NCBI GenBank assembly: GCA_900617105.1
Contig: UYFQ01000406.1
Location: 1 to 50,992 of the forward strand
Direction: 5' to 3'
DNA length: 50,992 bases
Source of the DNA: Hydrurus foetidus
Lineage: Eukaryota
Shown: piece by piece, positions 9,411 through 50,992 of the stretch
How positions within the stretch are numbered: position 1 is the first letter of the stretch
How the letters are laid out: each line of letters starts with the position of its first letter
Notes under the pieces: model-generated
Database searches by the model: none
What the model was told of the DNA's origin: nothing
Seen by the model: the letters and a program-made list of their open reading frames with translations, nothing else
Program-made: the position numbers and the translations under genes

Positions 9411-9832
9411 GAGTCACTGTCCCCAACCGTGCTCTTTTCCCCACTCAAAACGTGTTTTTTGCTTACACTCAATATTCAAAACGCGTAAAAAGTTGCAATT
9501 TAACTTTGTTTTTCAACCGGAAAGAAGATTCTGAATCGTGTTGTATAGATCTTGTAGACTGACCACAATTTGGCTCGGATGTTATCCGGCGTATTCGATT
9601 TCTGAAAACGTTTTCCGTGAAAACAATATTTTCCCGAAAAAATTTCAACCCAAATTGTGGTCAGTCTACAAGAAAATTTTACTGTGAGCACGAGGGTCAT
9701 CGACTCGAGACCCAATTCGTGGAATTGGTAATTTTATTGCGAATTGAAATTTGGGTGGCGATTTTTGGTTTGGGTGTGTTTTTCATTTTTTGTACGTACG
9801 AAAAAAAAGAGCACGACAGGCGACAGTGACTC
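9411..9832. mobile_element. 422-bp non-autonomous TIR element with TTAA TSD (Kolobok-like)
   Basis: TTAA|GAGTCACTGTC ... GACAGTGACTC|TTAA; absent from the sister 3' UTR at ~13010-13020. Confidence 0.85.
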
Positions 9833-10103
9833 TTAACTAATAATATACATGATTACGGAAAACCGAAAATCAAAAATATGTACAATATTTAACAACGCGA
9901 AAGTATATACGAAAGAAATTACGAAGGGGTTTCGGAAATCGTGAGAAAGATAAGGATAAGGGAGGATGTACAAAACAGAATCGTTCTATTGTACGAGGGT
10001 CAAACGTAATTATGTCAGATTTTTACTGATTAAAAAACCATAAAAATCCCTCGTGAGGGCAAAAATTAGGCCAAAAAATCTTCAAAAGATATTACGTTTG
10101 AGC

Positions 10104-16846: not shown

Positions 16847-16964
16847 AGAATCTTCATCTTCGTCGAAGGTATCCTGTTGGTGATCGATGTTCCACTCTGT
16901 GATAAGTGAATGTAATGTTATATCGGTGGAGAGGATGATGTGTGTTATGTGTATGAGAGAATGA

Positions 16965-22200: not shown

Positions 22201-25200
22201 CACCACCGATGCCATAGTCGGATGCATCAGTATATAATCTGATGGGTGAATCATCATTGATGAAGTACATTAAAGGACAACGCGATACCGCGATTTTAGT
22301 CTCATTAAATGCTAAAGTCCCCTCGGGGGTCCAATATATGGGGAACGTTTAAGTGCCTTTGGGTCCACCATCATTTGAAGTGGTTTGACAATGTCCGAAT
22401 GAAACGGTACAAATTGACGAAAATAGTTGGCTAAGCCAAGAAATCCACGAAGGGATGTTACTTCTTTAGGAAGAGGGAAGTTGAGTACTGTCTCAATCTT
22501 CTCCTTAGACATGGATAAACCATCTTTGTCTATGACTCGTCCCACGTATTCGATACGTTTGAGACCGAATCTGCATTTCTTTGCTTTGAGCTTAAGATTT
22601 TTAAGTCGAAATCTTTCAAAACGCTGCGCAGATTCTTGAGAAACTCTGCTTCGCCCCGGCCATATACAATACAGTCATCGAGATACATCTCGCAACAGCT
22701 GTATATGAGACCGTAAAGGACCATTGTCACCATCTGCTCTTGAAAGTAAGAGGGGGCTCGACAAGGGCCAAAAGGCAATCTCGTGAACTGAAACACCCCC
22801 ATGAAACATATAAATGCGGTATAGATTCGGTGGGGTGTGTACAGAGGTGCTTGGTGGTAACCCGCGGTTAAATCCATCACTCCGTAAATATCCGGTTTTT
22901 ATTACCGATCCTCTCAAAGAGGTGTTTGATATTGGGTAGGGGAAAGGAGGCCGACTCAATGCATTCATTGAGTGCTCGATAGTCGATGCAGGTTCGATAC
23001 GTATCGGCTGTCTTATTTACCATTACAGGATGACTGTAGTATGCAGCGTTCGACCTCTCGATCACACCATCCTCCAACATTTCTTCAATTGAAGTGTGGA
23101 GGTAATGTTCCTTTTTTAGAGGATTGGGGTCGCACTGGTGCGTGGTTCGATGGAACCTCCCATTTCTGTCTTGGCAGATTTATCTCAAACGATTTGAGGG
23201 CAGCAGCTTGCGGGGCTAGCTTATCACTGAAAATATCAGAGTGATGAGAACAGAGAGTACAAAGTTCATTTTTGAAGGCTTTCATCTCCCTAAAAATGAA
23301 TCTAAGACAAAATCATCCGGCCCGTTGGGCGGTACATTTCGGCACGTCTTGTCACGCAAGAAAGGTGCAGAAGTGCCAGTGTTGTCATCGTCAATCTCGT
23401 CAACGGAGAGTGCGACACCGCTTGGCCATACGGCTTCCACGTCATAGTCTGATGTAACAGAGTCCCCAGAGGTATGTGTGAGGGTGGGAATCGAGTCACC
23501 ACCTAGGTGCGGGGTATCACCCGTACGTTTTGCGAGTCTAGTCGTGACACTAGCCAGTCGCTAACAACCCACATCACCACATGGACCTTGGGTAGCTACT
23601 CCCTCGGAACCAACCTGGGTAACGCTACACGTGAACGTTGTATGACAACCTGACCCCACGACTTCCTTGGTTAAAGGTGCGTGCAAAATGGCCTTCTTAG
23701 GTTTTGGCGTTTGGCATAGACCGTATGGCTCTCTTTAACGAGCGAGTTCAGTCTGTGTGATACCCTTCAACAAATCATAGGTTGGGGTGATTGACTACAA
23801 CTCAGGTTCCTCGGGTTCGAAACCCTCGGATATCATACGCCTAGTATATTTGTGCCAATGAAGTGGGTCAAGCTTGGCTATCGCTTCCCTTTCTTCAAAA
23901 CTCGCGCCAACGAGTGTCACATTTCCTTTTGTTCTCAGCACGGAGCTCGTGAGAGATACCAAAAGCAAAAGGTGTCAATGACATGAAATCATAATTATTT
24001 ACAGTTATACGACTTAACAAAAGTTCGATATCCGTGTTCCTATTAACTCGCAAGGTTAACGGGATAGTATGACATTCCCATCATAAGAATGAAGTTTGAC
24101 CTTGGCCAAATTTAGGGATGTGTTGAAGTCAAAGGCAGGATCGAACGAACGAGAGCCTGATGTATGTATATGAACAAATATATGTATGCATATGTATTAT
24201 TCCCTAGAATATCACATTGGTTTGTTCGAGAGTCGTGACAACCAACTGTGGAAAACAATAGGTATGGCGTACTAGAGCCTATATTTCTTCTTGAATATTG
24301 CATAGCAATTTTCTAGCATGAAGCTGCGTAAGATTCCTAGGATCAAATTTTTTTTTAATATTCTTATTTTTATTTTTGAATCATATAAACAGGATCGAAA
24401 CGTACGAGAGCCTATTGAATTCAATATATTCCCGCGGAATATTGTTTTATTTCGCTTCAGCACTAAGCTTTAAGCAACACCAAAACGAAGGTTGTGAGGC
24501 GAAGCCTTTTCCCCTTTTGAAATTGCCTAGCAATTACGCTGAGAAATATCTTTTCTAAATTTTTTTTTTTAAATTGTTTGTGTGCAATCGTCGATTCTGA
24601 CGTTGATTTGATTAAATTACAATCTGAAGAAGAATCTTAAAATCTGCAAAATAACATCTAATTTTGCAAATATACTAATCGATGACCCACCCCTACTGGG
24701 AGTCGAACCCCGAATATTTAGTGGGTGTAGAATCTGTCAAGATATTATCTTTATTCATCAAGATATCACGAACGCGCGCGATTCAAGTGTTCTGCATGTG
24801 CGATTCATGTAACCATGACTAAAGTGCATCTAGCAAGAGGTTTTGACCTTATTTAGGTGAAAAACTGATGAAAATCAGTCGCAAACTACGATGTCGCGCT
24901 GAGTCTATAACTCTGCATGACGATATCGCTTACATCGAGTAATCGTTGCAAACGATTCTCTAGGATACGAGAGACTAATATCCAGAGGGGCGATAGTGTC
25001 CGCCTCCGGATTCTCTGCGTATCTTCTGTCAAAAGACATGCAGAAATCAGCTGCGGTCACAATGATATATCTCTTCGGAGAAATATGATTGTAACTCATT
25101 GAAGACAGAAGCCCCTCGTCAAAAAAAATTTGCGAGGGCTTCGCCTCGTTGGTTAAAAGGGTCCTTTACGCAAGTAACAGCGAATAAGTCGATTTCAACC

Positions 25201-26857
25201 AACTCTTGTTGAGAAAATCTCTTAGGCGTGAAAGCCAATTTTTGAGTGGAGAAAATTTTTGGTGTCCGTAAAGGATGAAGGAGGTAATTCCCACCAGCCA
25301 AAAGAAGTCCTTAGACTAATTTGGTGTCGTTAGCAATGAATCCAATGTTCAAATTGCAAACCGATGAGTTTGAAAGTGTCGAGTGGTGAAGGCTTTCGCG
25401 AATTCAACCAACTACGAACTTTGGAGACACCAATAATGGGTTCCAAGAGGAAAGAGGCTAAGCCCAACTTTCACTAACTTAAACTAAGTTCTTGGAGCGT
25501 AGCTCAGCAAGAATTTCGACTCCGAAGATGTCGTGAGTAATAATACTCAGGTGTTGGAAGTCGTAACTAAAGTTTGGACGAGTAGAGGGAATTAGAGGTA
25601 GTAGAAATTTTCCCGAGGATAATAGATCTATTGTGGTCGGGGGAAATGGAGAAAGGGAGTCGAGGGAGAGTAGGCTTAGTTACAGGGTGCTAGGCTAGAA
25701 GCTAGTTAACTTCTAAGTGGACGCTGCAGATGGCTACGACGATACGACAGCCTAACTGTAGTGTACAGTAGTAGTATCCGGTAGGATCCAGTAGATTCGG
25801 TACCCGGTAGGATCGGGACCCTGGACCCGGTACTATCACACCATACGGATTTTGAAGGTGCTTGCCGCAGATAGTCGTTGAGACTAATAGTGGTTCTATC
25901 GTACTGAGGATATGTTCCTAATAGCACACACTCCAACTTGGTCTTGATTTCAATCACAGGTAGATCTGAAATGTGGCTCAGTTTACCGAGTGTTTTAAAT
26001 GGCGAGTCGGCCGGTAGGTCCGCTGCACTTTCCTCGTATCTCTGGCAATTTGCCATGAAATACTTTGGACTGTAAATTAAGTCCAATACCAACTTGCTGA
26101 ATCTCTCCCAACCCAGTAGTCTGATCATTCCGCCAGTCTTATTCATTCGTTTTACTCCTTCACTTTTTCCCGAGCAAGGTCGGAGAGTTCCATCTAAACC
26201 TGATATTCCGTACTGTCCTATGACCTTCATTTTATCCAGAGAGTCAGAATTACCTGTTTCTGACTGATTTTTTGCCGCTGCTTTCGGCCGCTGCTCGAAT
26301 AATTTAGACAAGGTCGGAGAGACTAACTTAGCGACCGCTTTTCCCATAGCTGTTTCATTGATTCCTATAGGTGTCAAAAAGTTGAAAGGAGTTTGCGCAA
26401 TTATCTTCATCCCTGCTTCGAGTTGGATCTCATCTGGTTCGTGCAAGTATGCTATGACAGTCATTCTTGTTGTCTCGCTCGTTGGTTTCTCGTCAATTAA
26501 AGCAAATACAAAATTGGAGGTAGCTCCCCAATCTGCATTTAGCTCTTTATCTACATTTTTGTTATTCGCTGGTATCATAATAGGTAGACCTTGATTTGCC
26601 ATTGAAGCTGGTACGACTTGGGCGAGAGATTTTTTGAATCTCTCTCCTGCTGCCGTTGTGTACGTTGGGTTGTATAGTGAAGTAGCACTTATCATGTCTT
26701 GCCAGAAGGCAGTAGCATTCACATATTTTGGTCCCAAAGCTTTAGCTGAATCGCGGTCAAACCGAGGCCTCTTTGGCGCACTCTCAACTGATGGTTCAAG
26801 TCCCGACATCAAAGTAAAAGATCGAAAACAATAGTGCGAGCTAAGCTTCGCCAACAA
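19126..26857 (-). CDS. ORF1 (Gag-like) of the YR retrotransposon in two parts, 26857-25841 and 19896-19126
   Basis: Removing the gypsy and one CCAT copy restores the frame (..APSKSVW|KKESSRQGRVLFIAALRNIEQVF..). C-terminal C..C..C..H cluster. Confidence 0.8.
19901..25840 (-). mobile_element. Chromodomain gypsy family B with both LTRs (19901-20109, 25632-25840) and a 4-bp TSD CCAT; gag largely missing
   Basis: 209-bp LTRs with about 3 mismatches by eye; CCAT at 19897-19900 and 25841-25844; PPT beside 20110. Confidence 0.95.
20495..24095 (-). pseudogene. Gypsy Pol (partial protease, RT, RNase H, integrase, chromodomain), multiply frameshifted upstream of 22270
   Basis: Same motifs as 10104-12732; colinear with 48650-50990. 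Confidence 0.93.
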
Positions 26858-28105: not shown

Positions 28106-28720
28106 TCGGGCAAATATATGGGCATACCAAAATCTGGAATATAATACTTTAACGTAGATCTAGTACTATAATCCTGGAAATTTTACCAAAACATGGCTCT
28201 ACTAAAATGTGGATTTTGTACCCTAAAGTAAAGTTCGACCTACTATTCAATGGAAGTCATACTTAAATGTGTGTACAATACTTATTCATAGATTTAGTAC
28301 TATTTAATGTAATCAGTGCCAAAATGTAGATCCCATGCCAAAAATTAGAACCACTGACCTATTTCATGGAACTAATACTTGAGTGCACATGCAATATTAT
28401 TCAGCCAAGTTGTGGATTCAATGCCTTTAATTTGTGACCATTTTACTACTCATTCCTTCATAGATGAACTATTGCGCACTATACAAAAATAGTTGTACGC
28501 TTTACTAATTTCATTTGCTTTGTTCGTCGACATTGACTGAGAAAGAAAAAGGAGCTTATGAAGTCAAAAAATGTTGATTTATTTTCCCAGGTACAGATCT
28601 TGAGAATGGATACAAGATACATTTTCTTGCGGTCTAGGCTGGTGACGATGACGTATGTGAACTCGAATGAGTGGATGTGTATAGTAAAATTGGTGCGTAT
28701 GTGTACTAAACAACGTCTTT

Positions 28721-28860
28721 GAAATTCAACGGCATGAAATTCGACGGCATAAAAATTAATGGCATAAAAATTAACGGAATGAAAATTCACGGCGTGAGAA
28801 TTAACGGCATGAAAATTAATGGCATGAAAATTAACGGCATGAAGAATGACGGCATTGAAG
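28721..28860. repeat. 15-bp minisatellite (AATTAACGGCATGAA)n, ~9 copies
   Basis: Directly visible tandem units. Confidence 0.92.
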
Positions 28861-28947
28861 GAATAAAAGAACATTGAAAGCAAGTTCGAATCGGAGGACG
28901 TCTAGTGTGGTACGTTCTGCATCACAGCTGCAGTTGTGCCAGTAATC

Positions 28948-30291: not shown

Positions 30292-31720
30292 TGCTGACAA
30301 ATCCGAGGTCTGGTGGCCGACGGAAGTACAGTGAGCACAGCGGCGTGAGTTCGAGATTGTCAAGGCTCGCGATATAAGATCTATCGTATCAGTTGTCACT
30401 TGTTAATTAGACTGTGCTTCATCAGTCAAAAAGGCCGCGAGTCCAAACAATGCATACGATAAGATCTTATTCTACGGTTGCAGTTTGTAGATGCTGTGCT
30501 TACTGATCCATCCGCCATGCGTACGCGTACTTACTCAAAAAAGCGTACTGCAGTACGCTAAGTAACGTAAGTACACAGATCATGTTCGTGTCATATACTC
30601 AGATATATCAACACACCCCTATGGCACTTACACACATCTCACGCATAGAGTTTAGTATGCATGTAACTTCATGTCGATGTCTAAACTACTATCGCATCGC
30701 TCCAACCCGTGATCCCTTTCCTCTCCTCTTGGAATTGCAGCCCTTGCAGTGGCCTGGTCAGTAGATTCGCATACATTTTCTTCGTCCCTAGATGTTGCAC
30801 GCGCGCTTCCCCTGTGTCTACACGCTCCTTCACCCAGAAGTATCTGATAGCGATGTGTCTGGTGCGTTCCGCTGCTGATCGCCCTCGATCTATCAGCGCC
30901 ATGCAGGACATGTTGTCCTGGTATATGGTGACCGGCCCGCATGGGTCTCCCTGTGCCAGGACGAAGTTCCTGATGTGTAAGGCTAGATTGGCAGAATCCG
31001 AAAGCGCTAAAAAACTCCGCCTCCGTGCTTGACTTCGTTAAGATCTGCTGCTTGGACGACTTGCAGTGCACCGCTCCTACCTCTCCAATGACTACGCAAC
31101 TGCCCGTGTGTGACTTCCCGTCTCGGTGCACCCCGTATGCCGCATCTATTAGCACACTCACTTCAATTCCAGACTCTCCAGGTGAGGACACAATTTCCCT
31201 CTCCTTGGTCCCACACACATATCGCATCAGTCGCTGCAGTTTGGTGAGGTCGTCTGTGGTGCATCGGTTCACTATCGTCGCCAGGAACGACACTGCGGTA
31301 AGGCAGTCTGATCTCGCTCTCTTCGCTAAGTACAGCATCTTCGCAACGCATCTGTGAAATGTCACTCTCCGCTCCTCGGTAGCGGTGACGATGTTTGGTC
31401 GCACATCGAATAAACCTTCCGTGGCTGGCGTGCTAGCTCTTTCCGTGATGCCACACTCTCTCAGCATCTCGTCCACGAACCCTGTCATCGTCACTTTGGC
31501 TTTGCCCGGTGTCCTCAGATCGAACACAATCCCTAAGTAGTTCACTACGGGCCCGTTCTTCCTGGTGATTTCTCCATATCTTCTCGTCAGACCGGCCGCC
31601 AACTCTTCTATCATTGGCCGACACGCACTGGTGATCAGTAGATCATCAACGTGAATAGCCACAGTACACTGCACACCATGTTTATTATGTCTGTTGAAGA
31701 CGCAGATGTCGTATACGTTA
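30292..31720 (-). mobile_element. Ty1/copia 3' fragment (RT and RNase H, PPT, 3' LTR 30292-30613)
   Basis: IHVDD, YLG, IDAAY, SSTEAE, RTRHIAIRYF, ANLLTRPL; PPT ATAGGGGTG then TGTTGA...TCAGCA. Confidence 0.9.
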
Positions 31721-32729
31721 GGTGAAATATCCCAGATCAGAGAAGCTTGCTCTCAATGTCGGTATATAACACCGATAAGTGCTAGTTATAGCTGTATATA
31801 ACCATTTGTATAATCAACAATTAGCATGATAGGATATCATAAGTAAACACATTTTGTAGATTGTTATTGGTGTGCAATGTGCACCAAGTCGCTTCCTCAA
31901 TGCCAATTCGTATCACGTATATTGCCATTGTTCCACCATAATAATCACAGCTGTGTAGTATTTATCCGGTACTTGGTACCAAAAGTCTAGCTTTTGGTAC
32001 AAACGTCATATTTACAGTTGGGTAGCTACTATCTCGCCTATACAACAACGCAGATGTAAATCTCCGAGAGCCAGTCAAATTGCATGCGCATGACGTCTGA
32101 GATCTTATTATTGTACGGCAGGTAGAAATGATGTGCAACATGAATTTATGCTTTGTGGCCTCCGTGCCAGTTTCTAATTCATAAAAAGAATATGCTAACC
32201 AAAACTTCCCATCTTCGTTTGGCCATCCACGATATGTCCTCCCAACTTCGTGCCAACGCCTGGCGACTCACATGGTAGCGATTGAAGCTTTCAAGACTTC
32301 AGAGATAGTTTTAAAGAGCCTCCGTCCAAGTTAAAGATGGCGAAAGGAAAGAAAGGCCCAGGGCCATTTTCATTTGAAGATGATAAGGAGCCACCGCAGC
32401 CTCCTATTGAACAAATAATACCTATTTTCCCTCTGACTCCTGCATTAGGAATTGAGGAGCCTCCCATCGGTGTTATAATCGATGAGGAAAGCCCTCAATT
32501 CCGGGTAGCCTTAGATAGAAGAATCGCTCAACTCCAGTTGCTAATAGATGAGAGCCCGATTATAGATAACCCGCTATGGTTAATCGACATCGCGCCCAGG
32601 GCGGATCTGCCGCTAGGCGATTAACCCTCATCTAGGAGCACTGAGATGAGAGCGATTCCCCTCAACCTCCATCCGTCAAGTCCGATACCGTCCGATGATG
32701 AGACGTCCATAAGTAGTAGTAAAATTTCT

Positions 32730-34923
32730 AGTAGATTGAATAACGGGGGAAACCCTCGCAAAAAAGTTTCGTCGGAGGGTTGCAAATTCTCCTTAGGCTG
32801 ACAGCCACACGTTATATCCACCTGCTCAGAAGATAAAACTTCCGCTAATGAGGTTGTGCTTGATGAAGCATTGGCAGATATCTGATCGGGGAATCGTGAA
32901 AACAAATTCAATTCGCGAATTGTTTTTCGTCCGACTATAAGATCAAATTTCAAATCGTTTAAAACATAAGCCGTGATTTGAAAAGTATAATAATAAATCA
33001 GGGCAAAAATAAGAAAGAGTTAAGTCTATAGTGTCAGAAATAGCATGACAATAATTATCTAATCCACTACAAACTTTACACAGTTTCTTTGAAGAGTTAG
33101 AAACGAATTGTGTGAAATTATGATTAGTTATAATGCGGCGATGTATAAAGTTGCCAGCAAAAGAGCCGGTGTCCAGGAGAGTAAAGACTCTATTACTTTT
33201 TTCCAGCATAACCTCCTGTGAGAGGGGAGATATAAAGAAAGGAATAAGTTCTGGATCATCGGAAAGAATAGATGATGAATTTAGATTGCATAGTTGCTCA
33301 CCTTTCTGTTTCTTCGCAGTGTGTGTCGAGTCTGCTGTTGAAGTAGCAGATTTTTACGAAGAAGAAGAAGAAGAAGATGATGATGAAGAAGAGGTTGTCT
33401 TAGGTAAAGCTGGAATAAACTTAGCCTGTGGATCAACTTTCAACAATTGCTTATGACCCTCAGAGTTGATGAAGGGTGTCTGAGTACTATTATAGTACGG
33501 AGACGAAGTGTAGAAACAAGTGGAGACGAAATAGCCAAGTCTCCCACAACCTGTGCAGAGAGGTCTTTCATGTTTGTCAGACTTGTCTAACTGCACAGAT
33601 TGCTCGTTCTCTCGTGGACGTTTTTTGATTTTGTCCTGAGAGGAACGAGCAGGAGCTTTGATTTGGCGAGAGTTATCACCATACAAAGGAGATACATCAA
33701 TAAACCGTAAGGCATCAATTCATTCTCGTAGCTTAGCAAGCTGCGCAAGCCATACGAATCGAAAGTCTTCGATTGTATTGAGTCTTGGCGTTGTATTGTT
33801 AAGACTACGCTGTAACACTGCTCTCCAATTGATGGGTTCGACTGGCAACTTATCGATGAGAATTTCAGTTGCCTGAAGTTGGAGAGCGGGTGTTGCATCA
33901 GGGAATCCATCAACAATATCAGCTAGAAGCTGATCTGTTTTGTCTTCCACTGATTTATCCTTCAGGTCGAATTGAAGTGCGACCTGAGAGACAGTTTCAA
34001 TGAAACTCAGCTTGTCAGTTCGATTGACAGCTGATGTAGGAACTGTGAGATTGAGTTCTCTACAGAACAATTGATTCGACCAATGTTTCCAATTGTTACA
34101 GGAGTCGCGATGATCCGGATCAGTCGCAAACTTACGCTTGAGAAGCGTTGTAAACGATTGATGGTTTGAAACATGGACTACATCAACTGGTTTAAATGGA
34201 GTTCCATTTGAAAGGAGGACCTCCATTATCCGTAGTACTTCCTGACGAGAGGGCACGGCGTTCAACTTAGGAGCTCTCTCACTCGTCTGCACATATTGCT
34301 GGGGTGGTGCCATCGTCCTTGGAATAGGATTCTCAGCAATAGCTGGTGTCGCAGCCGAAGCTGGTGTCGCAGCCGAAGCTGGTTGCAATGACAAAGCAGA
34401 CAACGCAGAAATGACAGGAATATCAACGACAGACATGACCGCAGGCTCCGAATTCCGCTGAGGAATCGGTGCAGACAGGTCGCCGGCGGGGTCCTGAGTC
34501 GCAGGTGACCCAGGAAAATCTGCGTCTCCACCACGATTGTGATGCTCGTCATAGCGTTGTCGGAACGCGACGGCTACAGCACGGGGTTGCTGCTTTCGTC
34601 GAAGGGCGTTGATGGAGGATGTCGTCTTTTCTTGGCGGCGTAGCGCCATAACTTTGACGTGATGGATAAAGTTGGAAAGAGACGAAGGTGAAAGTTGGAA
34701 AGAGAAAAAATTTCTCGGAGGAAACTTCGGTAGGTGACCGAATATCGATATTGTGGTCTGCGGCGGGGCCTAGGACGGAAGGCGAAGTTGGAGTAGGCGG
34801 AGGACGGGAGATAAAGACTTGTGTTAATATCTTACAGTTAAATAGATGAAGGTGATGTGTACGCTAAGAATCTGATGGTACCAATCCTTGTTGGAATAGA
34901 TCATCTTACAGAAAAACTTCACA
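32730..34923 (-). mobile_element. Gypsy family D 5' part (LTR from 34752 to ~34910-34923, gag 34649-~33300, protease), degenerate
   Basis: Gag ORF 33720-34649, knuckle-like CTGCGRLGYFVSTC, protease LLDTGS and DLIVGR. The outer LTR end is uncertain. Confidence 0.8.
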
Positions 34924-35195
34924 GGCAAACTACTGTTAAGTAGGGACGAATGATTAAACTGTTTGATAGAGGTTTGACTAACGGTCGCTGAGAGGAAATA
35001 ACTTTCAAAGCAAAATTGATTTTCAAATTTTCAAATTTTCGAATTTTTACACCCATTTTATCCGGTAAAACCATGAAACAACTCAAAATGAACATCCGTT
35101 ATAAAACACACGCGGTACTTACGCGCACAAGCTATCACGCTGCCATGAATTGTAGCCTGATTTCCCTCAAAAATCTCCACAGATCTAGGTGTTCA

Positions 35196-38106
35196 AGTAA
35201 CGTTCATAATGTTGTACACGTTCAAAATTGATGTACAACACTTTCTCAACTTCTGCCCAAACCTGGTGCCTATCAACCTCTACAATGCCAATTATCTCAC
35301 TCGGTTCTTCACCAATTATCCTCAGACTTTGAAGGAGATATGGTAGTGCGATTAAGATCCAAGTGTCAGCTTGACACGTCGCCAGCAGCAAAACTTCCTG
35401 AGGCCGTTGCAAAAGTGACGAATAAGGAGTGCACTCTGAACAAGGCTGCCAAAGAAGCGGGAATCGACCGGCGACTGCTGAAAAGGTTCGCCATTCTCTC
35501 GTTGACAGTTTGTTAAAACCTCTCATTGACTTGAGGTTCTTGTCCAGGACGCTCGATGAAATTCAGAACGGACCTCCACTGAAAAAGAAAAGGGGGAGGA
35601 AATGCCTCGTCTCAACTGATGTCATCAATAAGAGTAGAGACGTCGCGGAAGAGCGAGATCGCGCAAAAGACTCAGCATCAAGCGCCAAGGAGATTCTGGA
35701 GGATCTCGACGGCCACCGACGGACGGAGCTCGAGAACAACAATCTCAACCGCCATGCAACACTCCGACCACTTAGTACTTCTACCAAGTGGAGATTGATG
35801 CAGGACATTGCTCCTGTCAGAGTAAAATGCGGAGGTCTTCAGTCCACGAGCAGACAGAGAGCCCTACAAGATCCACGGAACGCGCTCTCTTGCGCAGCAA
35901 CTTGGTCTGCGGTGACTGAAGGGGTCAATGATCCCCGACGAATTCACTCTTGGGATGAACTCAGCGTAGAACTGAATGGTTTCGGCCAGAAGAAAAAACT
36001 ATACCTTTCTAAAGTAGGTTCAGCAGCGTTGTCAAAAAGAAATCTTAATCCAGCAACAACAAAAAATCAGGGGAAGAGAAGAACAATTAAATTCGGCATA
36101 AGTGAGTGTATAAAGTTACTCTATGCGCGATGTGACGTAACTGAAAACTATTTGCTCACAAATCGATTCTAAATGCATCAGATACGAACGCTGATGGTGA
36201 AGTTGAATGCACTGTTGTAATGATAAAAGACGACAACTTTACGAAACTCAGACACTTCAAGGTATCGTGCAAGCAAAGAGAATAATATCGCGTGGCAATA
36301 TCAACGCTAAGATCAATTTACTGTTATATTTCAACACAGATCAAGGACTCACTGTACTGTTTCTTGATTCCAACAAATCATGAAGATACAATTCTAATGA
36401 CAAAAATGTGGAAGAAGGCAGTTATTCCGGAAGCTAAAATACGAGTTGCAAAGCTGCAGTCCGAAATTTTGGGAGGGGGTACCATGGACGAAATGCTTAC
36501 TCCACCGGAGCTTACCCCACCCGATATCGCAGCTGCTATTGTGACTGAGGAAATGATTAAGGCAGCGAAAGAGGCATCAGAACTAATATTTACTATGGAT
36601 GGCTGTTGGGCGCAAGTTAAGTCAACGTTTGATGACATCAACGATGCGTTCAACAAGGAAGGATATCAGGGGTACAAGTTTGCAGCAGCATCAACAATGG
36701 TCCAGCAGCCGAACGATGTTGGAAGGATGCATTGTAACATACACAATTACTACAAATCAGACACGTACGCAAGGAAAGAATATCATGTCCCAAAATACAT
36801 GCTACCAATGCGCAAAATACTGCTTGAAAGTGGGCTCGAAGCCTCAAGCTTTCATACCTACTGGAAGGCTCTGGCTCGTCTACCAGAGTACCTCACGAAA
36901 TGCTGCCAGCCATCGGTTGTTCGCGACGGGTATCGCATTGCAGGAATCTGGCCTGTAGATCACGGGAAAATTCTGTCAGGATGGGCGGGATGGGCTAAGT
37001 TAACGACAGCAGTGGCGGACGAGGTACTCTCGAACTTACCTGGTCTAACAGAACTTGCGAGGAAAGGTAGATTACTCGATTCTGAAATCGAGGCCCCCTT
37101 CGAAGGCCTACTCGAATTTGATCCCCTATCGAGAAAGTCTGACGACAGTCCCTGGAATCACATGCGATGCCTCTGGACCAACAACGATGCCGTTATTGCT
37201 GCGTACATTGCAAGGAGTAACAAAGCAGAAGAAGAACAAATCAGAAAAGAGAATGCATTGATGGAGAAAGAGTGGAGATTGGAGTTTCCGCTGGAAGCAG
37301 CCGCAGATGATGCAAGGATTCTACTTAGAGATAATCCAGGATTAGTGGCGATTGCTGCAGTGAAGGTAGCACCAAAGTATAAGTGTAGCAATCCAGGATG
37401 CCTCATTACCGGCACAGCCAAAGAGAGAAAGAATTGGTCCAGCTGCAAGCTGAGCAAGCAAACGAAGTGCCGCCTTCTGTTCTGTCCCGCGGCGTCTTGC
37501 GCTGCAATATTTGCTGATCACAGGTTGATCTGCATGAAGTAGAGATTGTGATATTTAGTTCTCCTCACGTATCATATCATATCATCTTCTGCTTGCATCG
37601 TACTCCTGAGAGTCGCGAATCATTGATAATATCTTCTCAATGACTGGCGAGCATACGATAATGCCAGCACTACTTACGTGTCAATTTGTCAACGCAATCA
37701 ATGATATCCTCAGCCGACTCAATATTTCTAGTCTCGTATTATTATCATAACGGTACCAGAAGCATCTTGTTGACCAGTAACCTGCAGAATCAGAGATGAT
37801 GATATATGAGACCACTTATTATTGAAGCTGCGTGCAAGAGTGAAGTCGACATTGATGCATGTGATGTGCTAAGAAAGTTCAGATAATATTGGGGTTTCAA
37901 AATTATAAAAATTATGAGGGTGACTCACCGAATTTTAGACTACGTGCCACTAACGGCAGTGATCCCAGCTACAATCCTGCTGATTCACTTTTGCTGTCGG
38001 AGGATCTCGGAATTCGCTATATTGTCTGGATATAATTGCACTGCAAGGGTTTCGAGGTTTGAGTTGTACATCAATTTTGAACGTGTACAACATTATGAAC
38101 GTTACT
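35196..38106 (+). mobile_element. 2.9-kb DNA transposon with perfect 44-bp TIRs (pogo/DDE_1-like)
   Basis: AGTAACGTTCATAATGTTGTACACGTTCAAAATTGATGTACAAC at 35196-35239 and its reverse complement at 38063-38106. Confidence 0.9.
35429..37542 (+). CDS. DDE_1/pogo-like transposase with a C-terminal Cys-rich finger; introns 36102-36181 and 36262-36339; start uncertain
   Basis: HSWDE, NTNADG, TMDG, QQPND, GYRIAGIWP; splice phases consistent. Confidence 0.8.
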
Positions 38107-38315
38107 AGAGTGTTTGCGCATTGGAAATTACCGAGACTCTGCGGACCCTGGGTATTTCCAATTCCCCGAGATTTCTCGTGAATATAGCGATCCTGCAATT
38201 TGAAATAACATACGTGCGCATTCGCAGTTGTTGAATCTACAAGACTGCTAAACTTTAATTCAAAATCGCCAACTGTGGACTTCCGTCCTCATAGATGGCG
38301 CATAAATAAGCATAG

Positions 38316-39668
38316 ATGGAGTTTGATTCCATCATCGTCAATCGTCTCCCAATAAAGGAACTATCTGTGAAGCTCAGGAGTGCTGGACAAACAGCTCTTG
38401 AGCTTCTGCAGAGGAAGAGGCATCTTCAAATTTCTGCAATTCTCTTATTTGATCTGATGGACGTGAACGGCGACGATGATGCGTCATCCGACGATGAAAT
38501 AGAGGAAGAGAAAGACGATCTCAAAAATTTCGATGCACTTGGATATGCATATGCGCACAAGGTCTCTCAATGTGATGCTCCGCGTCGTGTGACTGTGCGT
38601 CGCATAGTCAGGAAGGAAGTAACCCTAGACAATTACTCTGATCACGAATGTTGGAACTTGCTTCGCTTCAGAAAAAGTGACATTCTGAAACTGATTTTGA
38701 ATCTAAAGCTACCAGGATATCTTGTATCAAGTGATAGGCACAGATTTACAGCAGAATTCAGCATCATCTTATTTCTTAGGCGTATGGCTTACCCTGGTCG
38801 ACTCACCGATCTCGAGGAGGAATTCGGAAGAGATTACACAACGCTGAGTAGATCAATTAAAACTACTCTTGCATGGATTGACTCTAATCACTCTTTCCGC
38901 ATCAACAATTATCTGCATTTCTGGCTTCCATATCAACAAATATTTGCAAATGCTGTAGCTTCCAAGACTGAAGTACCAGAATTGTATTTCAACGTCAACT
39001 CGTTTCTCGACGGTACTCAAAGGCCAACAACAAGACCAAGTGACGGACCTGGACGGCACGAAGATGCACAAAGACTTTTTTACTCTGGCTATTACAGGTG
39101 ATGTGCCAAGAAATTTACTGCACGTACTGGCTAAATTCTAAAAACTAAATGCATCATTCTGCACAGATCACATGGATTCAAGATGCAGTCACTTATGTAT
39201 CCTTGTGGCATGATTGGGGATCTCTATGGACCCATCGCTTGCAGGCGTCATGATTGTCACCTGTTGCGAAGCAGTCGTCTCCATGACCGATTAAGTGTCA
39301 TGTTAGCAGAATGTCCTGTCGACTACTTATGCTATGGTGATTCTGCTTATCCTATGCTAAGATACATCACCCGTGGCACAAAACGACCTAAGTTTCCCTT
39401 AGTAGCAAATCCTGTGAATGCTGCAAATGCTTTGAAGATGTCAAAAGTTAGAGAGTGTGTCGAGTGGGGGTTCGGCAAGATAGTCAACTTGTGGGCATTC
39501 TTGGATTTTAAGAAAAATCTCCAATTATACTCACAGCCCGTTGCAACTTACTACACTGTTATGGGTTTTATTACGAACTGTCACACTTGTCTTTATGGCG
39601 GTCAAACTTCAACCTTCTTTGAGTGTGAACCACCCACTCTAGAGCAATACCTTGCACCTAACATCTAA
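38316..39668 (+). CDS. PIF/Harbinger (HARBI1-like) transposase; intron 39098-39166
   Basis: LRFRK, LRRMAYP, FGR, FLDGT..P..RP, YSGYYR|SHGFKMQ, YGDSAYP, SKVRECVEWGFG. Confidence 0.92.
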
Positions 39669-41629: not shown

Positions 41630-44578
41630 TTAATTCTTCTTGGACGTAAAATATGGAAATCGTGGGTTGAAATTGGTGCGTACGGGTGTCGGTGCGGAGT
41701 CCGTACGGTCCTCAGTCTTGCATCCATCTGCGTACGTGAGGGTAGGTGGTGAGGTGTTGAGCAGCTCCTTCCTGAGCTTCTTGAACAATTCACCCTGCAG
41801 TGGCTTGGTTAGAATGTCTGCAATCATGTCAGTAGTAGGTAGGTACACAATGTCTACATCGCCTGTACTGATTCTGTCGTGCAGGAAAAAATACCGTATA
41901 TCAACGTGCCGCGTACGTTCGCTGTTCGAGCGACCGTTACGTATGAGCTGTATCGTAGACTGATTGTCTTGATACACTAAGGCGGGAGGTTGAGGGTGTC
42001 CCTGGCACTCCAGGAAGTTCCTGGTCCACAGAACTTGGTTGGCGGAGTCGCTGAGTGCGACTAGCTCGGCCTCCGTGCTGGACTTTGTCATGAGGCGCTG
42101 AGTACCGCTCTTGGCGTAGATCGCTCCCTTCCCAAGGGTGATTACGCTGCCTGTGTGACTTTTCATATCGGGATGTATGGCAAAGGATGCATCGATATAT
42201 GCAATAACATGAATAGGTTCATATACTTCAAATGTTATACCCGTATGCTGACTACCCCGTATGTACTGTATCGTACGGGTCAGCTTGTCGTAGTCGTCCC
42301 TTTGGGGCCTCAGCACTCTCTTTGTCAGGAACGCTACGGCAGTCAGAATGTCTGGCCTCGTCCTCTTACTCAGGTAGAGTAGCTTCGCTGTAATAGAGTG
42401 AAAACGCTCACGCAGATTATCAGGTAAGGGTGAGTCGGATTCATCAGGGATAGTGAATAGATTGGCTCGTGCGGGTGTGTTTGCCGTGCCCGGCATATCC
42501 TTACACCCCTCAATGAGGTCTTGTACGAAGCCTTCCATAGTCATTTTAACGCAGCTTCCTTGCTGAAGTCGAAAGTCATGCCTATGTAATTTAAAACTTT
42601 TCCTCTGTGTTTGGTTAGACCGGGATATATAGTTTCAATTTGTTTTATAACATCATCAACGCGAGATTCACTTGAAGCAGTAATTATCATATCATCAACA
42701 TGAATTACGAGTGATGTTTGTGTGTTATCCGATTCAGTTCGGTTGAATACGCATATGTCATATTCATTAGCAGTATAATTGAATTTGATCAAATCACTGG
42801 ATAGCTTATCATACCATAGTTTAGCAGATTCAACGCATCCATATAAAGCTTTCTTAAGTTTAACAATACATGTTCCATTGTTATTCAGGTATTTGTTATA
42901 TGTTGCATCAATCTTAATTAGTGCAGCAGTCAGTTGTTTATTCAGACGCATGTATACAACATGGTCGCCGGTCAGCGGCATATCACTATTCAGGAATGCA
43001 CCGGGAAGTCAACAGTGGCGACAGCACGCTTCTGTCTAGCAGCAATTGCAGTCAGCATGAATACACTAGATGTGCTAGCAGTAGGTGAGGCGCCATTGTT
43101 ATAAACATCTCTATCTTGTAAGTGCCCACCGGCTACTAGTCTAGATTTCAGTTTTTCAAACATACCATCAGCAGTATACTTTTCTTTCAAGAACATGCTA
43201 CTAGGTATAATGGTGCGTTTTTGTTGTGGGGTGAGGGATTCGTAAGTTACACCTTCCCAAACATTCTTATCACACATTTGTTTCAATTCAGATGTAATGG
43301 AATCAACAGCTATCACCCCTAACTTATTAATTCCCTCATTAACAGTCATTTTGTACAGGTGAGTGTGGTTGTAGAACAGATTACCAACATATTTCTTATC
43401 CCATTTACCAAGTTGGTGATTTCTACCACTTCTTCGTAACACGGGTGAGTTTATAACGGGTGGGTCATATGCAGTTTCAATTATGGTGGCAGGTGGTGTG
43501 AATACTTCAGTGTGTACAGTTACATCAGCAAAGTCATCTTCATCATCACTTATGCCAAATATGTCATCTATCAGTGCTTGATCATATTTAGGTTGGGGTA
43601 CATGCGTGTCATCATGTGTGTCATCATAATAGAGTTCGTCATTATCGTATGTAGTGTCACTCACATATAGTGTGTCATCTACATACTCATCTAATGTGGG
43701 TGGGTGATTTTCATCAGACATATCGAGTTGTGATTCAAGATGTGTTTCGTTATCATTGTGATCGTTATCTTCAATAATCTCATCGGTGTAATCTGCGTTA
43801 GCATTTTCATCGACAGTTTCATATTCAACATCACCAATGTAAGCACTATCATCTTCAACATCGTCATCATCATCGAATACAATGTGACTACTATTCTCAA
43901 AGACAGGCTGTTTAACATTGGCAGTTTTTCTCTTTGAAGCTAATACATTTAAGTGTAATATCACTTCATCAGGCATAGGTAGTACAGTCGCTTTAGTACG
44001 TTTTACAATACGTTCGTTAGCTAACAGCATGTAGTACCATGAACCTTCTAGATTACCGGAGCTCATAAGTGCTATAGCCCCGGCTGTTCTTGGTTTGGTA
44101 GAGTTATCAATGACATCATTATGCACTTGGACATAATCACCAAAACCATGTTTAATCTCCTTATCTACGTCTAACTTTCTTCCAGTTAATTTCTCTCGTG
44201 GACTGATGTGATTAAGTGAGTTACGTGTGGGTGCTAATACAATTCTACTGACTGCATACTTAACTAACCACACTTCTAATTTCTCATTCAATGAGAACGG
44301 TAGAGAATTGACTACTGATCTTACTCTCTCCTTTATGTGTCGTATCTTACGCTCGACTACGGCTACGGCTTCTCCGGCTCCGGTAACGTCTAGTACTATA
44401 CCTCTTAAGCCGACTTTGTTGTGAAACCATTCTGTATTGATTGCACCCTCGCCGTCTACTCGGATCATCTTAACTCTGAATCTGTACTTTACCATGCTTG
44501 CTAATGAAGTCTTTAGGCTGTTCCATATGCTCTTGTGCTCTCGGTTAGCTAACTTGCTAACGTATAGGAACTCGATGG
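41630..44578 (-). pseudogene. Copia Pol (integrase, RT, RNase H) with two frameshifts
   Basis: RVDGE, VERKIR, KSRLVAGG, ALYGCVES, HVDD, RPDI, IDAS, SSTEAELVA, ADILTKPL; INT-RT-RH order. Confidence 0.93.
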
Positions 44579-46080
44579 TGTGACCTTGGAAGGCAAAAGA
44601 GAAGGGAAATCTAAAGGCTAAAAGGAGCTAGTTAGTTAGGGATGAAGGCAGAAGGTACGCTAGTAACTTCTGCAAAGCAGCACAAACTAGCTAGTGACTG
44701 ATAGTCGTGGCTGTGAACACGAAGGTACTAAGGTGGAAACAGCATCTAATCGGCTGAATGGGGTAGCAGACCCTGAGGGAGCCACACTACCCCTACTTAT
44801 CTCTCGTTTTCTCATTTCTCTCTCCCTCTCCCTCTCTCTCTCTTGGTGAGTCTCTAGCTACAGTGTGTAACAAAACAAATATGACTCAAGCGTGAGAAAG
44901 AAAAATGCAGAAAAAGATAATAAAAAATAAAAATAAAAATAAAATACAGAAATAAATGCGTACAATAAATACAGATATTTGTACATGTGAGAGATGGGGA
45001 AAGCGAGAAACGAGAGTGCCTAGATGTGTTGTAACTAAGTGTTCCCCTACACATTTATGTCAGATTTTTACTGACTAAACCTCCTGAAAAGCAACGTAAC
45101 GTTGTAAAAATGAGGAGGAATCTTCAAAAGATAATGTGTAGGTCGTTCCTGGGGAACTTACTTGTCTGTCGGAATTATTTTCGACATGCCGTGAAGGCGT
45201 AGATATGTGTGAAGAGCGTCTGTAAGACGAAGATTCTTCCACGACTCCCACGTATTGTGCGAGTCATCAAAGTCAGTCCATTTGACTAAAAACCGCATTT
45301 GGGTTTTGCGCCTGGAATTACCTTGGTGCTGAAGAATGGAATCGATAAAGAATTCCATATAATCGCGGCGTGCGACATCAGCAGGATCCGTGTGTTTCGG
45401 ATTGAAAACAAATTGTTTAAGATTACTAATATGAAGATGTTTATGTTTCTTCGTAGTTATATCTAACAACGTATAATCAGAATTGTGAATCGATATCACT
45501 TGAAACGGTCCCCGCCACAACGTGTGTAACCGTGTGGGCGGTTGTGTGGTATATCTAGCCAACACATATGAACCTACGGGAAAAACCGTTATATCCTGTG
45601 GACTTGTGGCAACGTGAGCCGCGTCCATTGTGCGCAAAGCAGTTTGTGCTTGGGCAATCAGGGTATCCTGGATGTGATACATCTCACAGACCACTTTCGA
45701 TGCGGAAGTTTCCACTTCCGGTAATTGTGGGAATGGTGACAGTATGCCCGAATCAAGATTGATTTGGTTACCAAACAATAAACTTGCTGGAGAGGCATTG
45801 GTACTGCTGTGAATTGAAGAATTCAAAATGCGCTGTACAAACGGTAAGCAGTTTTTGTACTGGTATACGTCGTTTGTATCATACAGGAACGAACGTAAGT
45901 ACCGGTTAATTTCTTTATTAACTCGTTCAACTATAGCATTCTCTTGTTTAGAGTACGCTAGTGTCAAGTTGTGGGGTGTACCCGTTGACACGAGGAATTG
46001 TTTGATCAATTCGTTAGCAAAATGCGAACCCCGATCAGATCTGATCATTTGGGGTGCACCGTATCTTCCAAAGTGTTGGA
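44579..46080 (-). mobile_element. Gypsy family C 3' part (3' LTR 44579-44786, PPT, integrase-chromodomain 45158-46080)
   Basis: LTR matches 1321-1527; SDRGSHF, VERVN, WRGPF, VKWTDF..NTWES. Confidence 0.92.
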
Positions 46081-49000
46081 TGTGGTAGTTCCGGGTCCAA
46101 GGTCCCGATCCTACCGGATAGTACTACGGTACACTACCCACCGTACACTACAGTCTGTTGTATCGTCGTAGCCACTTACAGCCTCCACGTAGAAGTTAAC
46201 CCTAGCTTCTAGCTTCCTGCTGTAACTAACTACCTCTCTAGCCTTCCACCTCTTCCTTTTCCCATTCGAGCCACAATAGCGCTATTTCCGCTCATCCTCC
46301 TTCTCTTCTTTTCTACCCATCTACTCGTCCCAAACTTTAGATAGACTTCCAAAGGAGTATACTCACTCCACGACTTCCGAGGAGTCGTTTTCTCGCTGAG
46401 CCCGAAGCTCCGAGAACTTAGTTTAAGTTTACAGGAGTTTGGCATAGCCGCTTCCTGCTTGAAACCCTCCGAAAGGTGTTTTCAAAAGTTCGTTTTGGTC
46501 GAAGTCGCGAGAGGCTTCCCAACTCGAAATTAAGGAGTTCTCCACTGGCAATTTGGACACCGGTTCCACTGCTAGAGACATCAGATTAGTCTAAGGACGT
46601 CTTTTGGTCGACAGGAAGTTCTTCCTTCATCCTTAACAGGACACCAAAATTTTTATCACCCAAAATTCGGCTTCGACGCCATAGAATTTTTCTCGACAAG
46701 AGTGGGTTGAAATCATCTCATTCGCTGTTACTTGCGTAAAGTACTCGATACGCGAACGAGGCGAAGCTCTCGCAAAATTTTTTGACGAGGAAAGCTCGTC
46801 CTAGCTTCGCTACAACTCGATTTATATCGATTGCTCATCCTACGATAGGAGATGGAAGACGAGGGTCTACATCCTGAGCCTGAGCCAAATGAGCCAGACA
46901 ACGAGCATGAGGTTGATGAGGAAGGAAACATCCTTAACATCTCACAAAGCTCACAATCGTCAAGCATGGGTTTTCCCCAGACGCTTCAGATCCAGCGTGA
47001 GATATTCATCCTACGGGGAGATTATATTACTCCGCAGGATGCTGAAGAATTCTATGAGCAAGCACAACGCTTACCTCACTTGCATATTAAACAATGCATG
47101 CAACGTCAAGCAATCGATTTGCTTCATGTTAAAATCTTAACTGATCAGTCGACACTGGCAGTTATTACCAATGAGCAACGCCTTAATTGGCAAAACCTCC
47201 TTCCGATAGAGAGTGTTGGCAAGTTGGTAATGCAATACTTTTGCAAGAACAAACAAGGGGATCATACCTTAGCAGAACTGTTTGCTAAGGTCCCCTTCCA
47301 CTATTCTCTTTCCTCCGATGAGGAAGAGTTAGTAACGTACATGGCGTACAAAGAGATCGCCACGGATCACGAACGTGTCCGTCATATCACCGCATCTCAG
47401 CATGCCGAGTTGATAGCGATTCTTGAGAAACGACTCCCTCGAGGGAGCCGAATCTTGGGTGATTACGTCGCTCACAAAGCACGTGACAATGAGTCCCCAA
47501 GACGTGGGAAGTCGCCATGCTGCGCATTATCGCGGTCGTCACGGCGGCTCGCGACGCAATTCACATGAGCAGGAGTTATGGCAACCCTGACATTGTCTAC
47601 TCGTTTCCGAGTACAGCAGTCCCTCCTCCCCGCTCTACTAAAAAGCGGGCGAGCACACTGGCTATCCGTGATGTAGATATCCCAAGTGGGAGTAGCAACC
47701 TGGCGGTACGTTCGACACTTGACGAACCGTTAGTATCCGCTGCCCGGGTTTGTCGCTCATGCGGAAACCCTGCACATATTCTATCAGATTGTACAGTCAT
47801 GTACTATTCCGATACCAACAACGATCACGGCTGTAACTGGTCTGATTCGTTTGTAGGTAAGGCATGGCTGGCACAAGGGGAAGTTATGTGGCAGGAAAGA
47901 CTCATCCTACCTGGGTTCGAAACCAGGGAGAGATTCCACCCTGCAGGGGCACCCCCTTACTTGATGTGCAATAACAAGAAGCACAAGGGTAACCAGGGTG
48001 GAGGTAAGGGGTTCAACCCAAACCAGGGAAACCAAAACCAAGGTTCGGGAAACCGTGGGAATCAAAACCAAGGTAACCAAAACCAAGGTTCCGGAAACCA
48101 CAACAACCAAGGTTACGGAAACCAAAGTAACCAAAACCGCAACCAAGGGAACCCTGGTCCTACGGGCAACCAAGGTGGTGGCAGAGGGTATCAAGGTAAA
48201 AACCCTCGAGGGGGTCGATACAACCCACCCCAAGGGGATAACAACGCGAGCAACGGCTCTGCAAACCAACAAGGTACATATGATCCTGATGTCGATTCAT
48301 CTGATGTCACTGACATGGAACATTCAGTATCATGCATTACTGCATCGGTCATTCCAGCATTTATTCCCGATGAATTTTTGCATGATCCATCAATTCTACC
48401 TTCTGATCATCTCAACGTAACGGTTTTGATACAGGATAAGAATATGGAGCGCCAATCTAGCGTACGACGCGTTGTGGGCAAGGCCGTACTCGATACCGCC
48501 AATTACTCCGAGGATTTTATTTCTTTCACGATGATTGATAAGTTGAATGCTAAACATGACTGTTATAAAGCTTCTAAACCCATTACTGTTTGCTCTGGTC
48601 TCGATGGCCAGTGCTATATAAATAACGAAATGATTGATTTAATTCTTAAATTTCATTCTTATGACGGCGAATGTCATACCATCCCTTTAACGATGCGGGT
48701 TAATAGGAACACAGACATTGAACTTTTACTAAGTCGAAAAACTGTAAATAAATATGATTTTATGTCATTAACACCTTTCGCTTTTGGTATTTCTCCCGAG
48801 CTTAGTGCCGAGAACAAAAGGAAGCGTGATGCTCGTTGGCTCGAGTTTGAAGAAAGGGAAGCGATAGCCAAGCTTGACCCACTTCACTGGCACAAGTACA
48901 CCAGACGTATGATATCTGAGGGTTTTATACCCGACGAACCGGAAGTGGAGTCGATTACACCTACATACGATATGTTAAAGGGTATCACCAAAGCAAGACT

Positions 49001-50992
49001 TTCGAATCGGAGAGAACCATACGGTCTCTGCCCAATGCCAACACCTAAGAAGGCCATTCTGCACGCACCTCTAACCAAGGAAGTCGTAGGGTCAGATTGT
49101 CATACAACGTTCACGTGTAACGTTACCCAGGATGGTACCAAGGGAGTAGCTACCCAAAGTCCATGTGGTGATGTGGGTTGTCAGCGACTGGACAGTGTCT
49201 CGACTGTACTCGCGAAACGTACGGGTGATACCCCGCACCTAGATGGTGACTCGATTCCCATCCTCACACATACCTCTGGGGACACAGTTACATCAGACTA
49301 TGACGTGGAAGCCATATGGCCAAGCGGTGTCGCACTCTCCGTTGACGAGATTGACGATGATAAAACTGATACCTTCGCACCTTTCTTGCGTGACAAGACG
49401 TGCCGGAATGTACCGCCCAACGGGCCGGATGATTTCTTGTCTCAGATTCATTTTGAAGGAGATGAAAGCCTTCAAAAGGATCTCCGTACTCTCTGTTCTG
49501 AATTCGCTGATATATTCAGTGATAAGCTAGCTCCGCAAGCTGCTGACCTCAAGCCGTTTGAGATAAACCTGCCACGGCAGAAATGGGAGGTTCCATCGAA
49601 CCACGCACCCGTGCGACCCCAATCCTCTAAAAGGAACATTATCTCCGCACTTCTATCGAAGAGATGTTGGAAGATGGTGTGATCGAGAGGTCGAACGCTG
49701 CATACTACAGTCATCCTGTAATGGTAAATAAGACAGCCGATACATATCGAACCTGCATCGATTATCGCGCACTCAATGAATGCATTGAGCCGGCCTCCTT
49801 TCCACTACCAAATATCAAACACCTCTTTGAGAGGATCGGTAATCGAAAACCGGATATTTATGGGGTGATGGATTTAACCGCGGGTTACCATCAAGCTCCC
49901 TTATATACACCCCACCGAATCTATACGGCATTTATATGTTTCATGGGGTGTTTCAATTCACAAGATTGCCTTTTGGCCCTTGTCGTGCCCCTCTTACTTT
50001 CAAGAGCAGATGGTGACAACGGTCCTTCACGGTCTCATATACAGCTGTTGCGAGATGTATCTCGACGATTGCATTGTATATGGCCGGGGCGAAGCAGAGT
50101 TTCTTTTGAACTTGAGGAAAGTCTTTGAGAGATTTAGACTTAAAAATCTTAAACTCAAAGCAAAGAAATGCCGATTCGGTCTTAAACGTATCGAATACGT
50201 CGGACGAGTCATCGACAAAGATGGTTTATCCATGTCGAAAGAAAGATTGAGACAGTTCTCAACTTTCCACTTCCAAAAGAAGTTACGGCATTACGGGGAT
50301 TCCTTGGCTTAGCCAATTATTTCCGTCAATTCGTTCCTTTTCACTCAGAAATGGTAAAACCACTTCACATGATGGTGGATCCAAAAGCGGTTAAACGCTC
50401 TCCAATTTTTGGACCCTCGAGGGGACAAACGCATTCAATGAGACAAAGATCGCTGTATCTCGTTGTCCATTGATGTATTTCATCGATGAAACTTCACCCA
50501 TCAGATTATATACTGATGCATCTGATTATGGAATCGGTGGTGTATTATTCCAAGTCATTAATGACTCATGGAAACCAATCGCTTTTATTAGCAAATCTTT
50601 ATCTGCAACTCAGATTAATTGGTCAACAATACAAAAGGAGGCTTACGCTATCTTTTATTGTTGCCAACAATTGGATTATCTTATCCGAGATCGGAAATTC
50701 ACTATTCATACTGATCATATGAATTTGACATATATGAAACAAAATCCTACTTCGATGGTAGCGGTGGTTCATTGCAATGCAAGAACTAGATTTCACCGTT
50801 CATTTTGTTAAAGGATCTGATAACGAACTAGCCGATGCGCTGTCACGGTTATGTCCGAATCTTACTGAGATTGCTCTACCATTGACAATTGTCAAAGATG
50901 ATTGTTCATCATCATCTACATCTTCTTCCACAAGTGTGGCGGCTTTTACGGTCATCCAGACGTACAGATGAACAAAACTTCATATTCAAATG
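46081..50992 (+). mobile_element. Gypsy family A, 5' LTR 46081-46275, ~575-nt leader, gag-pol running off the window
   Basis: TGT...ACA LTR inserted into the family C integrase, followed by gag, protease, RT and RNase H. Confidence 0.95.
46852..50992 (+). CDS. Gag-Pol polyprotein (CCHC knuckle, NQG-rich tract, protease, RT, RNase H), broken by several single-base frameshifts
   Basis: CRSCGNPAHILSDC, VLDTANYS, RTCIDYR, YLDD, YTDAS; gag and protease share one frame (47517-49682). Confidence 0.92.

Follow-up and report, generated by a model that had tools for sequence, protein, structure and literature searches.

The window, by which we mean the whole stretch of 50,992 nt analysed here from the Hydrurus foetidus contig UYFQ01000406.1, carries chromodomain Ty3/gypsy retrotransposons nested in a repeat-rich region, as well as a DM10-domain gene detected by Pfam, and its sequence is also found in contigs from freshwater, biofilm and glacier samples; gene and habitats together would suit a flagellated protist as host. 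Some of these contigs carry an RNA label, though two of them may be DNA, and as contigs they do not reveal RNA ends. Using a comparison of the window with itself we mapped LTRs of about 170–210 bp with TG..CA ends. The gene order gag-PR-RT-RH-INT was read from the RH-INT order of the Pfam matches and a tblastn map, the chromodomain PF00385 is above cut-off in three pol frames (preceded in two of them by matches to RNase H and integrase), and for the homologue P0001 the best relative with a solved structure is Ty3 Gag-Pol (E 1e-71). On the forward strand, family A is present with a 5' LTR of 195 bp (46081–46275, TG..CA) and, beyond it, a broken gag-pol (46849–50992) that runs past the end of the window. 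The following features are on the reverse strand. A second family A copy has an LTR ending in TA (1895–2091), and its internal part is interrupted at about 1528 by a family C element; two 3' LTRs related to family A (9129–9323 and 12733–12932, region 9129–12932) were used as controls, with an RH-INT-chromodomain frame (10104–12230) between their outer ends. Family B is a whole element (19901–25840; 5' LTR 25632–25840, 3' LTR 19901–20109) with an LTR pair 98.6% identical, a polypurine tract ahead of the 3' LTR and a frameshifted RT-RH-INT-chromodomain coding part. Its target duplication (19897–19900 and 25841–25844) has 4 bp, while that of plant chromoviruses is usually 5 bp (PMC6317226 additional file 5). 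Family C consists of a 5' LTR (1321–1527) and a 3' LTR (44579 to about 44787, a further control) which are 97.6% identical, the latter spanning 44579–46123 together with an integrase-chromodomain frame (45158–46123). For family D we found an LTR (about 34752–34923, its start being tentative), a gag (33720–34769) and a protease (about 32950–33350), which both align with the group of the other families; no pol past the protease was detected in the window. A G-rich tract precedes all four 3' LTRs.

Several other repeats share this region. A DIRS-like element lies within the gypsy nest (15677–19944, reverse strand); its tyrosine-recombinase match to PF00589 at 15677–16990 is weak, with an E of 7e-4 that does not reach the cut-off, and a frame judged by eye to be RT-like (17400–18800) gives no match in Pfam. 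At 35193–38109 terminal inverted repeats of 47 bp (98% alike) flank two unannotated frames (35426–36172 and 36286–37542), so that this is probably a DNA transposon, and the forward frame 38316–39101, which has no Pfam match, resembles the start of a PIF/Harbinger-type transposase. Copia-type fragments with weak RVT_2 matches are located at 41630–44627, where the family C 3' LTR breaks the fragment, and at 30652–31752 (both reverse strand); no primer site of their own is visible in either. Tandem repeats are found at 28705–28869 (15-bp array, about 11 units) and at 2081–2432 (140-bp repeat adjoining the family A LTR). The LTRs of families A, B and C contain a small inverted repeat AGAAG..CTTCT (e.g. 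46190–46215), which is kept across families while flanks and loop change, and TGTAA is located 53–98 nt ahead of the LTR end in 32 of the 35 junctions counted (A, B, D and most loci), which we take to be a possible polyadenylation signal like the algal UGUAA.

The original prediction was that in the five 5' LTR junctions of the window a perfect 12-bp palindrome takes the place of the tRNA primer-binding site (PBS), and this proved correct for all of them, the first base of the palindrome being the terminal A of a 5' LTR each time. For family A, the palindrome (46275–46286, forward strand) is composed of this A, the 10-nt core ATAGCGCTAT and a T, and a second one belongs to the interrupted copy (1884–1895). 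Those of families B (25621–25632, core ATAGATCTAT), C (1310–1321, core GTAGATCTAC) and D (34741–34752, core ATATCGATAT) are likewise on the reverse strand. The palindrome was not used to set the LTR end in families A, B and C, where it was taken as the point at which identity to a 3' LTR stops; for family D, which lacks a partner LTR in the window, the end rests on the motif GACCACA, the downstream gag and protease and the near-identical junction of locus L050. As had also been predicted, the 3' LTR ends are different: those at 9129, 12733, 19901 and 44579 run into non-palindromic host sequence, and 15706, which is the end of an LTR fragment, has a non-palindromic flank as well. By way of background, a perfect 12-mer palindrome starts at 36 of 50,981 window positions and a perfect 10-mer follows 28 of 12,842 CA/TA sites, the five junctions included. 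An assembly artefact was considered and rejected, as the junctions are covered by contigs from four independent runs; 1310–1321 and 1884–1895 are also free of variation among the best 40 of 98 supported differences, which is weak evidence against an artefact.

To see the junction in relatives, we started from a protein search that gave 1,164 of them, 120 of which were among the matches listed, and aligned their protease for a locus search. This alignment fetched 44 metagenome loci, and a second collection searched afterwards added 14 (58 in total). In the first collection 27 loci contain 30 LTR-gag junctions, and in all 30 a perfect palindrome of 10 nt comes right after the terminal CA or TA; the other 17 loci start in gag/pol or too near the protease for an LTR, or end in a 3' LTR. 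In the second, four of the 14 loci reach the junction and all four have the palindrome, three of them with a polypurine tract and TG visible upstream. The perfect core is thus present in all 34 junctions found in relatives and in 39/39 when the window is included, in 13 different forms of which nine begin with ATA. Flanked 3' LTR ends, available in L007, L015 (at 6413), L022 and L038, are non-palindromic in all four cases, and three of these served to define where the LTR stops in L015, L001/L002 and L039/L040. The junctions were initially located via the palindrome and then checked by position and by a blind BLAST of LTR ends, with the LTR end being independently fixed for six families only (A, B, C, L015, L001/L002 and L039/L040), which makes this survey weaker than a genome-wide one by LTR pairs, and several locus contigs are collapsed, so that the assignment of junctions to pol is approximate. 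No relatives came up in IMG/VR, whether it was scanned with the pol protein or with the alignments of protease and pol. The loci L045–L058 are eukaryotic retrotransposon contigs inside bacterial MAGs, where they are probably contamination, and L055, at the end of a 137-kb contig, looks chimeric. We conclude that the palindromic junction is real and widespread in these elements.

Length and register had been expected to be constant, and this holds for the inner 10 nt, which are palindromic throughout, and not for the 12-bp form, as the outer A/T pair (−1/+11) occurs in 35 of 39 junctions. Because this pair is absent from the L026 family, the conserved unit is the 10-nt core directly after the LTR rather than the 12-mer. 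The LTR ends in TA instead of CA in 11/39 junctions (L010, L016, L018, L026, L029, L032, L036, L042, L051 and, in the window, the one at 1895 among them), and in the L010 and L036 families the base at +12 has become A, by which the palindrome grows to 14 nt.

Three types of primer are recognised for LTR elements, namely a whole tRNA, half a tRNA and, in self-priming, the 5' end of the RNA itself, the last being scored in a survey of plant elements by an LTR complement to 10 nt or more beginning 0–5 nt after the 5' LTR, and 6% of the elements in that survey have no detectable PBS (PMC6317226). That neither a tRNA nor a Tf1-like mode applies here had been proposed from the window, and the sequence marks of both are missing from 17 representatives: none of the 17 contains a TGG in +1..+8, the mark of a tRNA-primed element, and none has a Tf1-type complement in its LTR. 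Upstream, the longest anchored complement is 3–7 nt by Watson-Crick pairing and 4–8 nt with G-U pairs, compared with 5–8 in controls, some of the loci having a partial LTR. A second arm downstream, as known from the GalEa elements discussed below, matches at best in 5–7 of 9 positions in these representatives, against shuffle means of 5.7–6.9, and no tRNA genes were found within the window. One might still think of host tRNA halves or other host RNAs with self-complementary ends, since half-tRNA priming at the anticodon arm does exist in copia lineages (PMC6317226, PMC10886601). In the plant survey half-tRNA use was seen in these lineages only (PMC6317226), and it would take 13 different host RNAs whose ends are perfect palindromes, often of A and T only, with switches between LTRs that are 90–96% alike. 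Because of these 13 palindromic targets we regard a host RNA primer as the least probable of the explanations weighed here.

For the symmetry itself we aligned 23 of the 39 junctions without gaps, leaving out near-duplicates and one truncated locus. All five core pairs are paired in 115/115 cells with 30 two-sided changes, and the covariation score was reached by none of 500 shuffles, a kind of test that is inflated by kinship. Registers slid along the alignment drop to 32–49% paired. The outer three core pairs are nearly fixed, and the centre takes all four pair types yet stays symmetric. On a pol tree of 30 rows, comprising the window and the loci only (L043 was dropped for short coverage), parsimony requires at least 21 mirror-paired core changes and none that is one-sided; 16 of the 21 fall on the central 4 nt, which would be the loop of any hairpin and nevertheless remain self-complementary. 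The flanks of 15 closely related pairs have diverged at 11% of sites, from which 16.6 core differences are expected; four were seen, all of them mirrored, in L017/L019 (LTR ends 96% alike) and between two L013 copies (90%). The central CG/TA exchange of L017/L019 could be CpG decay on both strands, which cannot explain the GC/TA, CG/AT and GC/AT exchanges or the change between the two L013 copies. Alignment, tree and close pairs all support that the symmetry is kept by paired changes, as had been claimed from four sequences.

A feature acting at the DNA level, either a symmetric protein-binding site or template switches that perfect palindromes, with no link to priming, would be in line with the nearly fixed outer pairs, as DNA-binding dimers read palindromes. 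It fits poorly with a centre that takes every pair type while keeping its symmetry, the flanks show no such perfecting, with pair −3/+13 matching in 3/19, and the missing PBS would be left unexplained, so that we hold this origin to be highly improbable. A further idea, that family-specific palindromes restrict the choice of dimer partners, found little support, because distant branches share the cores ATATCGATAT and ATATTAATAT and most cores differ merely in the middle 2–4 nt.

How the core might pair as RNA was examined by computation. The isolated 12-mer has a hairpin energy of 0.0 kcal/mol in every junction folded and forms a duplex with a second copy at −6.8 to −16.2 kcal/mol; the core is thus computed to pair better with another copy than with itself, in agreement with the suggested pairing of two genomic RNAs. 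In a longer context most junctions are predicted to fold as a hairpin in which an outer stem carries the self-complementary apex and which is convertible to an extended dimer. For family A this imperfect stem (46268–46293, forward strand) would be formed by GAGC at the U5 end and GCTC downstream, and families B, C and D have their own predicted outer-stem pairings with moderate support. The U5 end pairs with +12..+24 at −4.84 kcal/mol, compared with −1.7 to −3.1 for windows further down, and non-cognate partners give −3.93 (permutation p 0.03), although with 6 of 18 families ranking 12th or worse the family specificity is only moderate. From these foldings an outer stem with imperfections, in which the C of CA is often left unpaired, appears plausible, not firm.

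Such a hairpin with a self-complementary apex is also what one would expect of a dimer-initiation or packaging signal in a U5-leader hairpin loop, comparable to the HIV-1 DIS or Ty1 PAL, in which case priming would fall to something else, such as a small RNA of the host, a tRNA that pairs in a non-canonical way or a remote segment of the element's own RNA. Palindromes are described to mediate dimerisation in HIV-1 and have been proposed to do so in Ty1 (PMC3592414). Retroviral DIS come in addition to a PBS according to Donnart et al. (PMC5445492), whereas the palindrome described here occupies the primer-pairing bases themselves in a register to CA/TA that is fixed in 39/39 junctions and that a dimer signal does not need. 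We consider a pure dimer signal unlikely.

The reading to which we incline, with slight preference only, is that two co-packaged RNAs pair via the palindrome and RT/RNase H cuts one of them, a Tf1-like self-priming in trans. The 10-nt palindrome at the primer-binding position would serve as the primer and also as the site to which it binds: the cores of two element RNAs packaged together would pair, the element's own RT/RNase H, whose RNase H domain is detected by Pfam, would cleave one strand after the core, and the 3' end so created would stay paired with the partner RNA at its LTR edge, much as in Tf1 except that two molecules are involved. The Tf1 primer has 11 nt, so the core duplex is about as long, and its cut is reportedly made by RT/RNase H (Levin, in 1996). 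A cut after the 10-nt core would also fit the family without the −1/+11 pair. Plus-strand strong-stop DNA would then copy the primer, and a copied primer must anneal during second strand transfer; with a sense core as primer this can happen only if the core equals its own reverse complement, and hence the symmetry would be required. If a mutation struck one side only, the resulting heteroduplex would contain two mismatches in mirror positions, and their repair could produce a new perfect palindrome in a single round. We infer from sequence that the primer is the sense core of the element itself, and in the same way the steps of dimer formation, cutting and priming.

In a rival version, acting in cis, one RNA might be cut after the palindrome and its 5' piece snap back as a small hairpin to prime on its own U5, with the strong-stop DNA then jumping to a second, uncut RNA. 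As the sense core would be the primer here too, full symmetry is likewise predicted via second strand transfer. The foldings of the uncut monomer often show this hairpin, and hairpin priming has been discussed as ancestral (PMC3601003). After the cut just 3–4 mostly A-U pairs would be left, and with the hairpin energy of the 12-mer at zero these computed energetics are the reason why a partner RNA is favoured over a snap-back, which we judge to be distinctly unlikely. Self-priming in trans has difficulties of its own: the duplex of AT-only cores, at the weak end of the range with just −6.8 kcal/mol, counts against it, it would use up one packaged RNA of the two unless priming is done by a short LTR transcript, and symmetry by itself does not tell priming from dimerisation.

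The closest precedent is the GalEa group of Ty1/copia elements in fungi, in which a Conserved Hairpin Site replaces the PBS (Donnart et al. 2017, PMC5445492). As described there, the place of the PBS is taken by a palindrome that extends over the last A of the 5' LTR (as in 35/39 of our junctions), in the same register and with no LTR complement, and the authors already cite DIS and Tf1 as comparisons (PMC5445492). GalEa elements are copia, and the gypsy domain order and chromodomain place ours outside that clade. Their palindrome has 10 bp (8-nt core) in two dominant sequences and a second arm, a 9-mer, 12–41 bp downstream (PMC5445492), in contrast to a 10-nt core in 13 forms with no such arm above shuffles in the 17 representatives. 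Inner inverted repeats in bivalve TRIMs have been likened to GalEa as well. Tf1, sushi and Tcn1 elements share with ours the chromodomain gypsy type, a tRNA-free site right after CA (PMC4600332, PMC11042837, 10.1101/2022.12.06.519325, PMC6317226), a PBS starting with ATA, duplexes flanking the PBS and a PBS copied onto the cDNA end; for Tf1 itself, a PBS starting ATAAC and the copying of the primer to the cDNA end are described (PMC11042837). Tf1 pairs an LTR-encoded RNA 5' end with a non-palindromic PBS, whereas the upstream complement here is within controls. If they prime in trans, the elements would work like Tf1, yet they lack the 10-nt LTR complement by which Tf1-type elements are recognised. 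Skipper from dictyostelids is a protist chromovirus with neither a TGG PBS nor an LTR complement, for which self-priming has been proposed, and differs by a polypyrimidine tract at the site, the word palindrome being absent from the main text of the report (PMC5006619). The HIV-1 DIS and Ty1 PAL1-3 are short 5'-leader palindromes pairing genomic RNAs, as shown for HIV-1 and proposed for Ty1, and unlike the core they have 6 nt and are found at a distance from the LTR edge, in addition to a tRNA PBS (PMC3592414). Palindromes near the PBS had been suggested for green-algal chromoviruses, a precedent we could not find: the Chlamyvir elements of green algae, algal chromodomain gypsy elements as well, are listed with tRNA-type PBSs (undetermined tRNA 50%, Met 41%, Ile 7%) and no mention of palindromes (PMC6317226 additional file 5).

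Kojima 2024 (PMC10886601) does not mention palindromes either, and we found no report of a palindromic PBS in gypsy elements in the literature searched, mostly by title and abstract and with subscription papers and Repbase notes largely outside. A palindrome replacing the PBS is thus already in print for copia, and judging from this literature the gypsy case with a covarying 10-nt core appears to be new. The chances are about even, in our view, that self-priming in trans is a fourth mode of starting LTR elements, which makes dimerisation and priming one step, regenerates and re-symmetrises its site in each cycle and has arisen in gypsy as well as in copia GalEa elements. The palindrome signature would give annotators a simple mark for PBS-less elements, and short synthetic RNAs together with a single RT would suffice for a direct test of the mechanism. 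In summary, a palindrome that covaries and sits precisely where a primer binds points to a primer type beyond the three recognised ones. If true, self-priming in trans would supply a mechanism for the unexplained GalEa site and would tie genome dimerisation to the initiation of reverse transcription.
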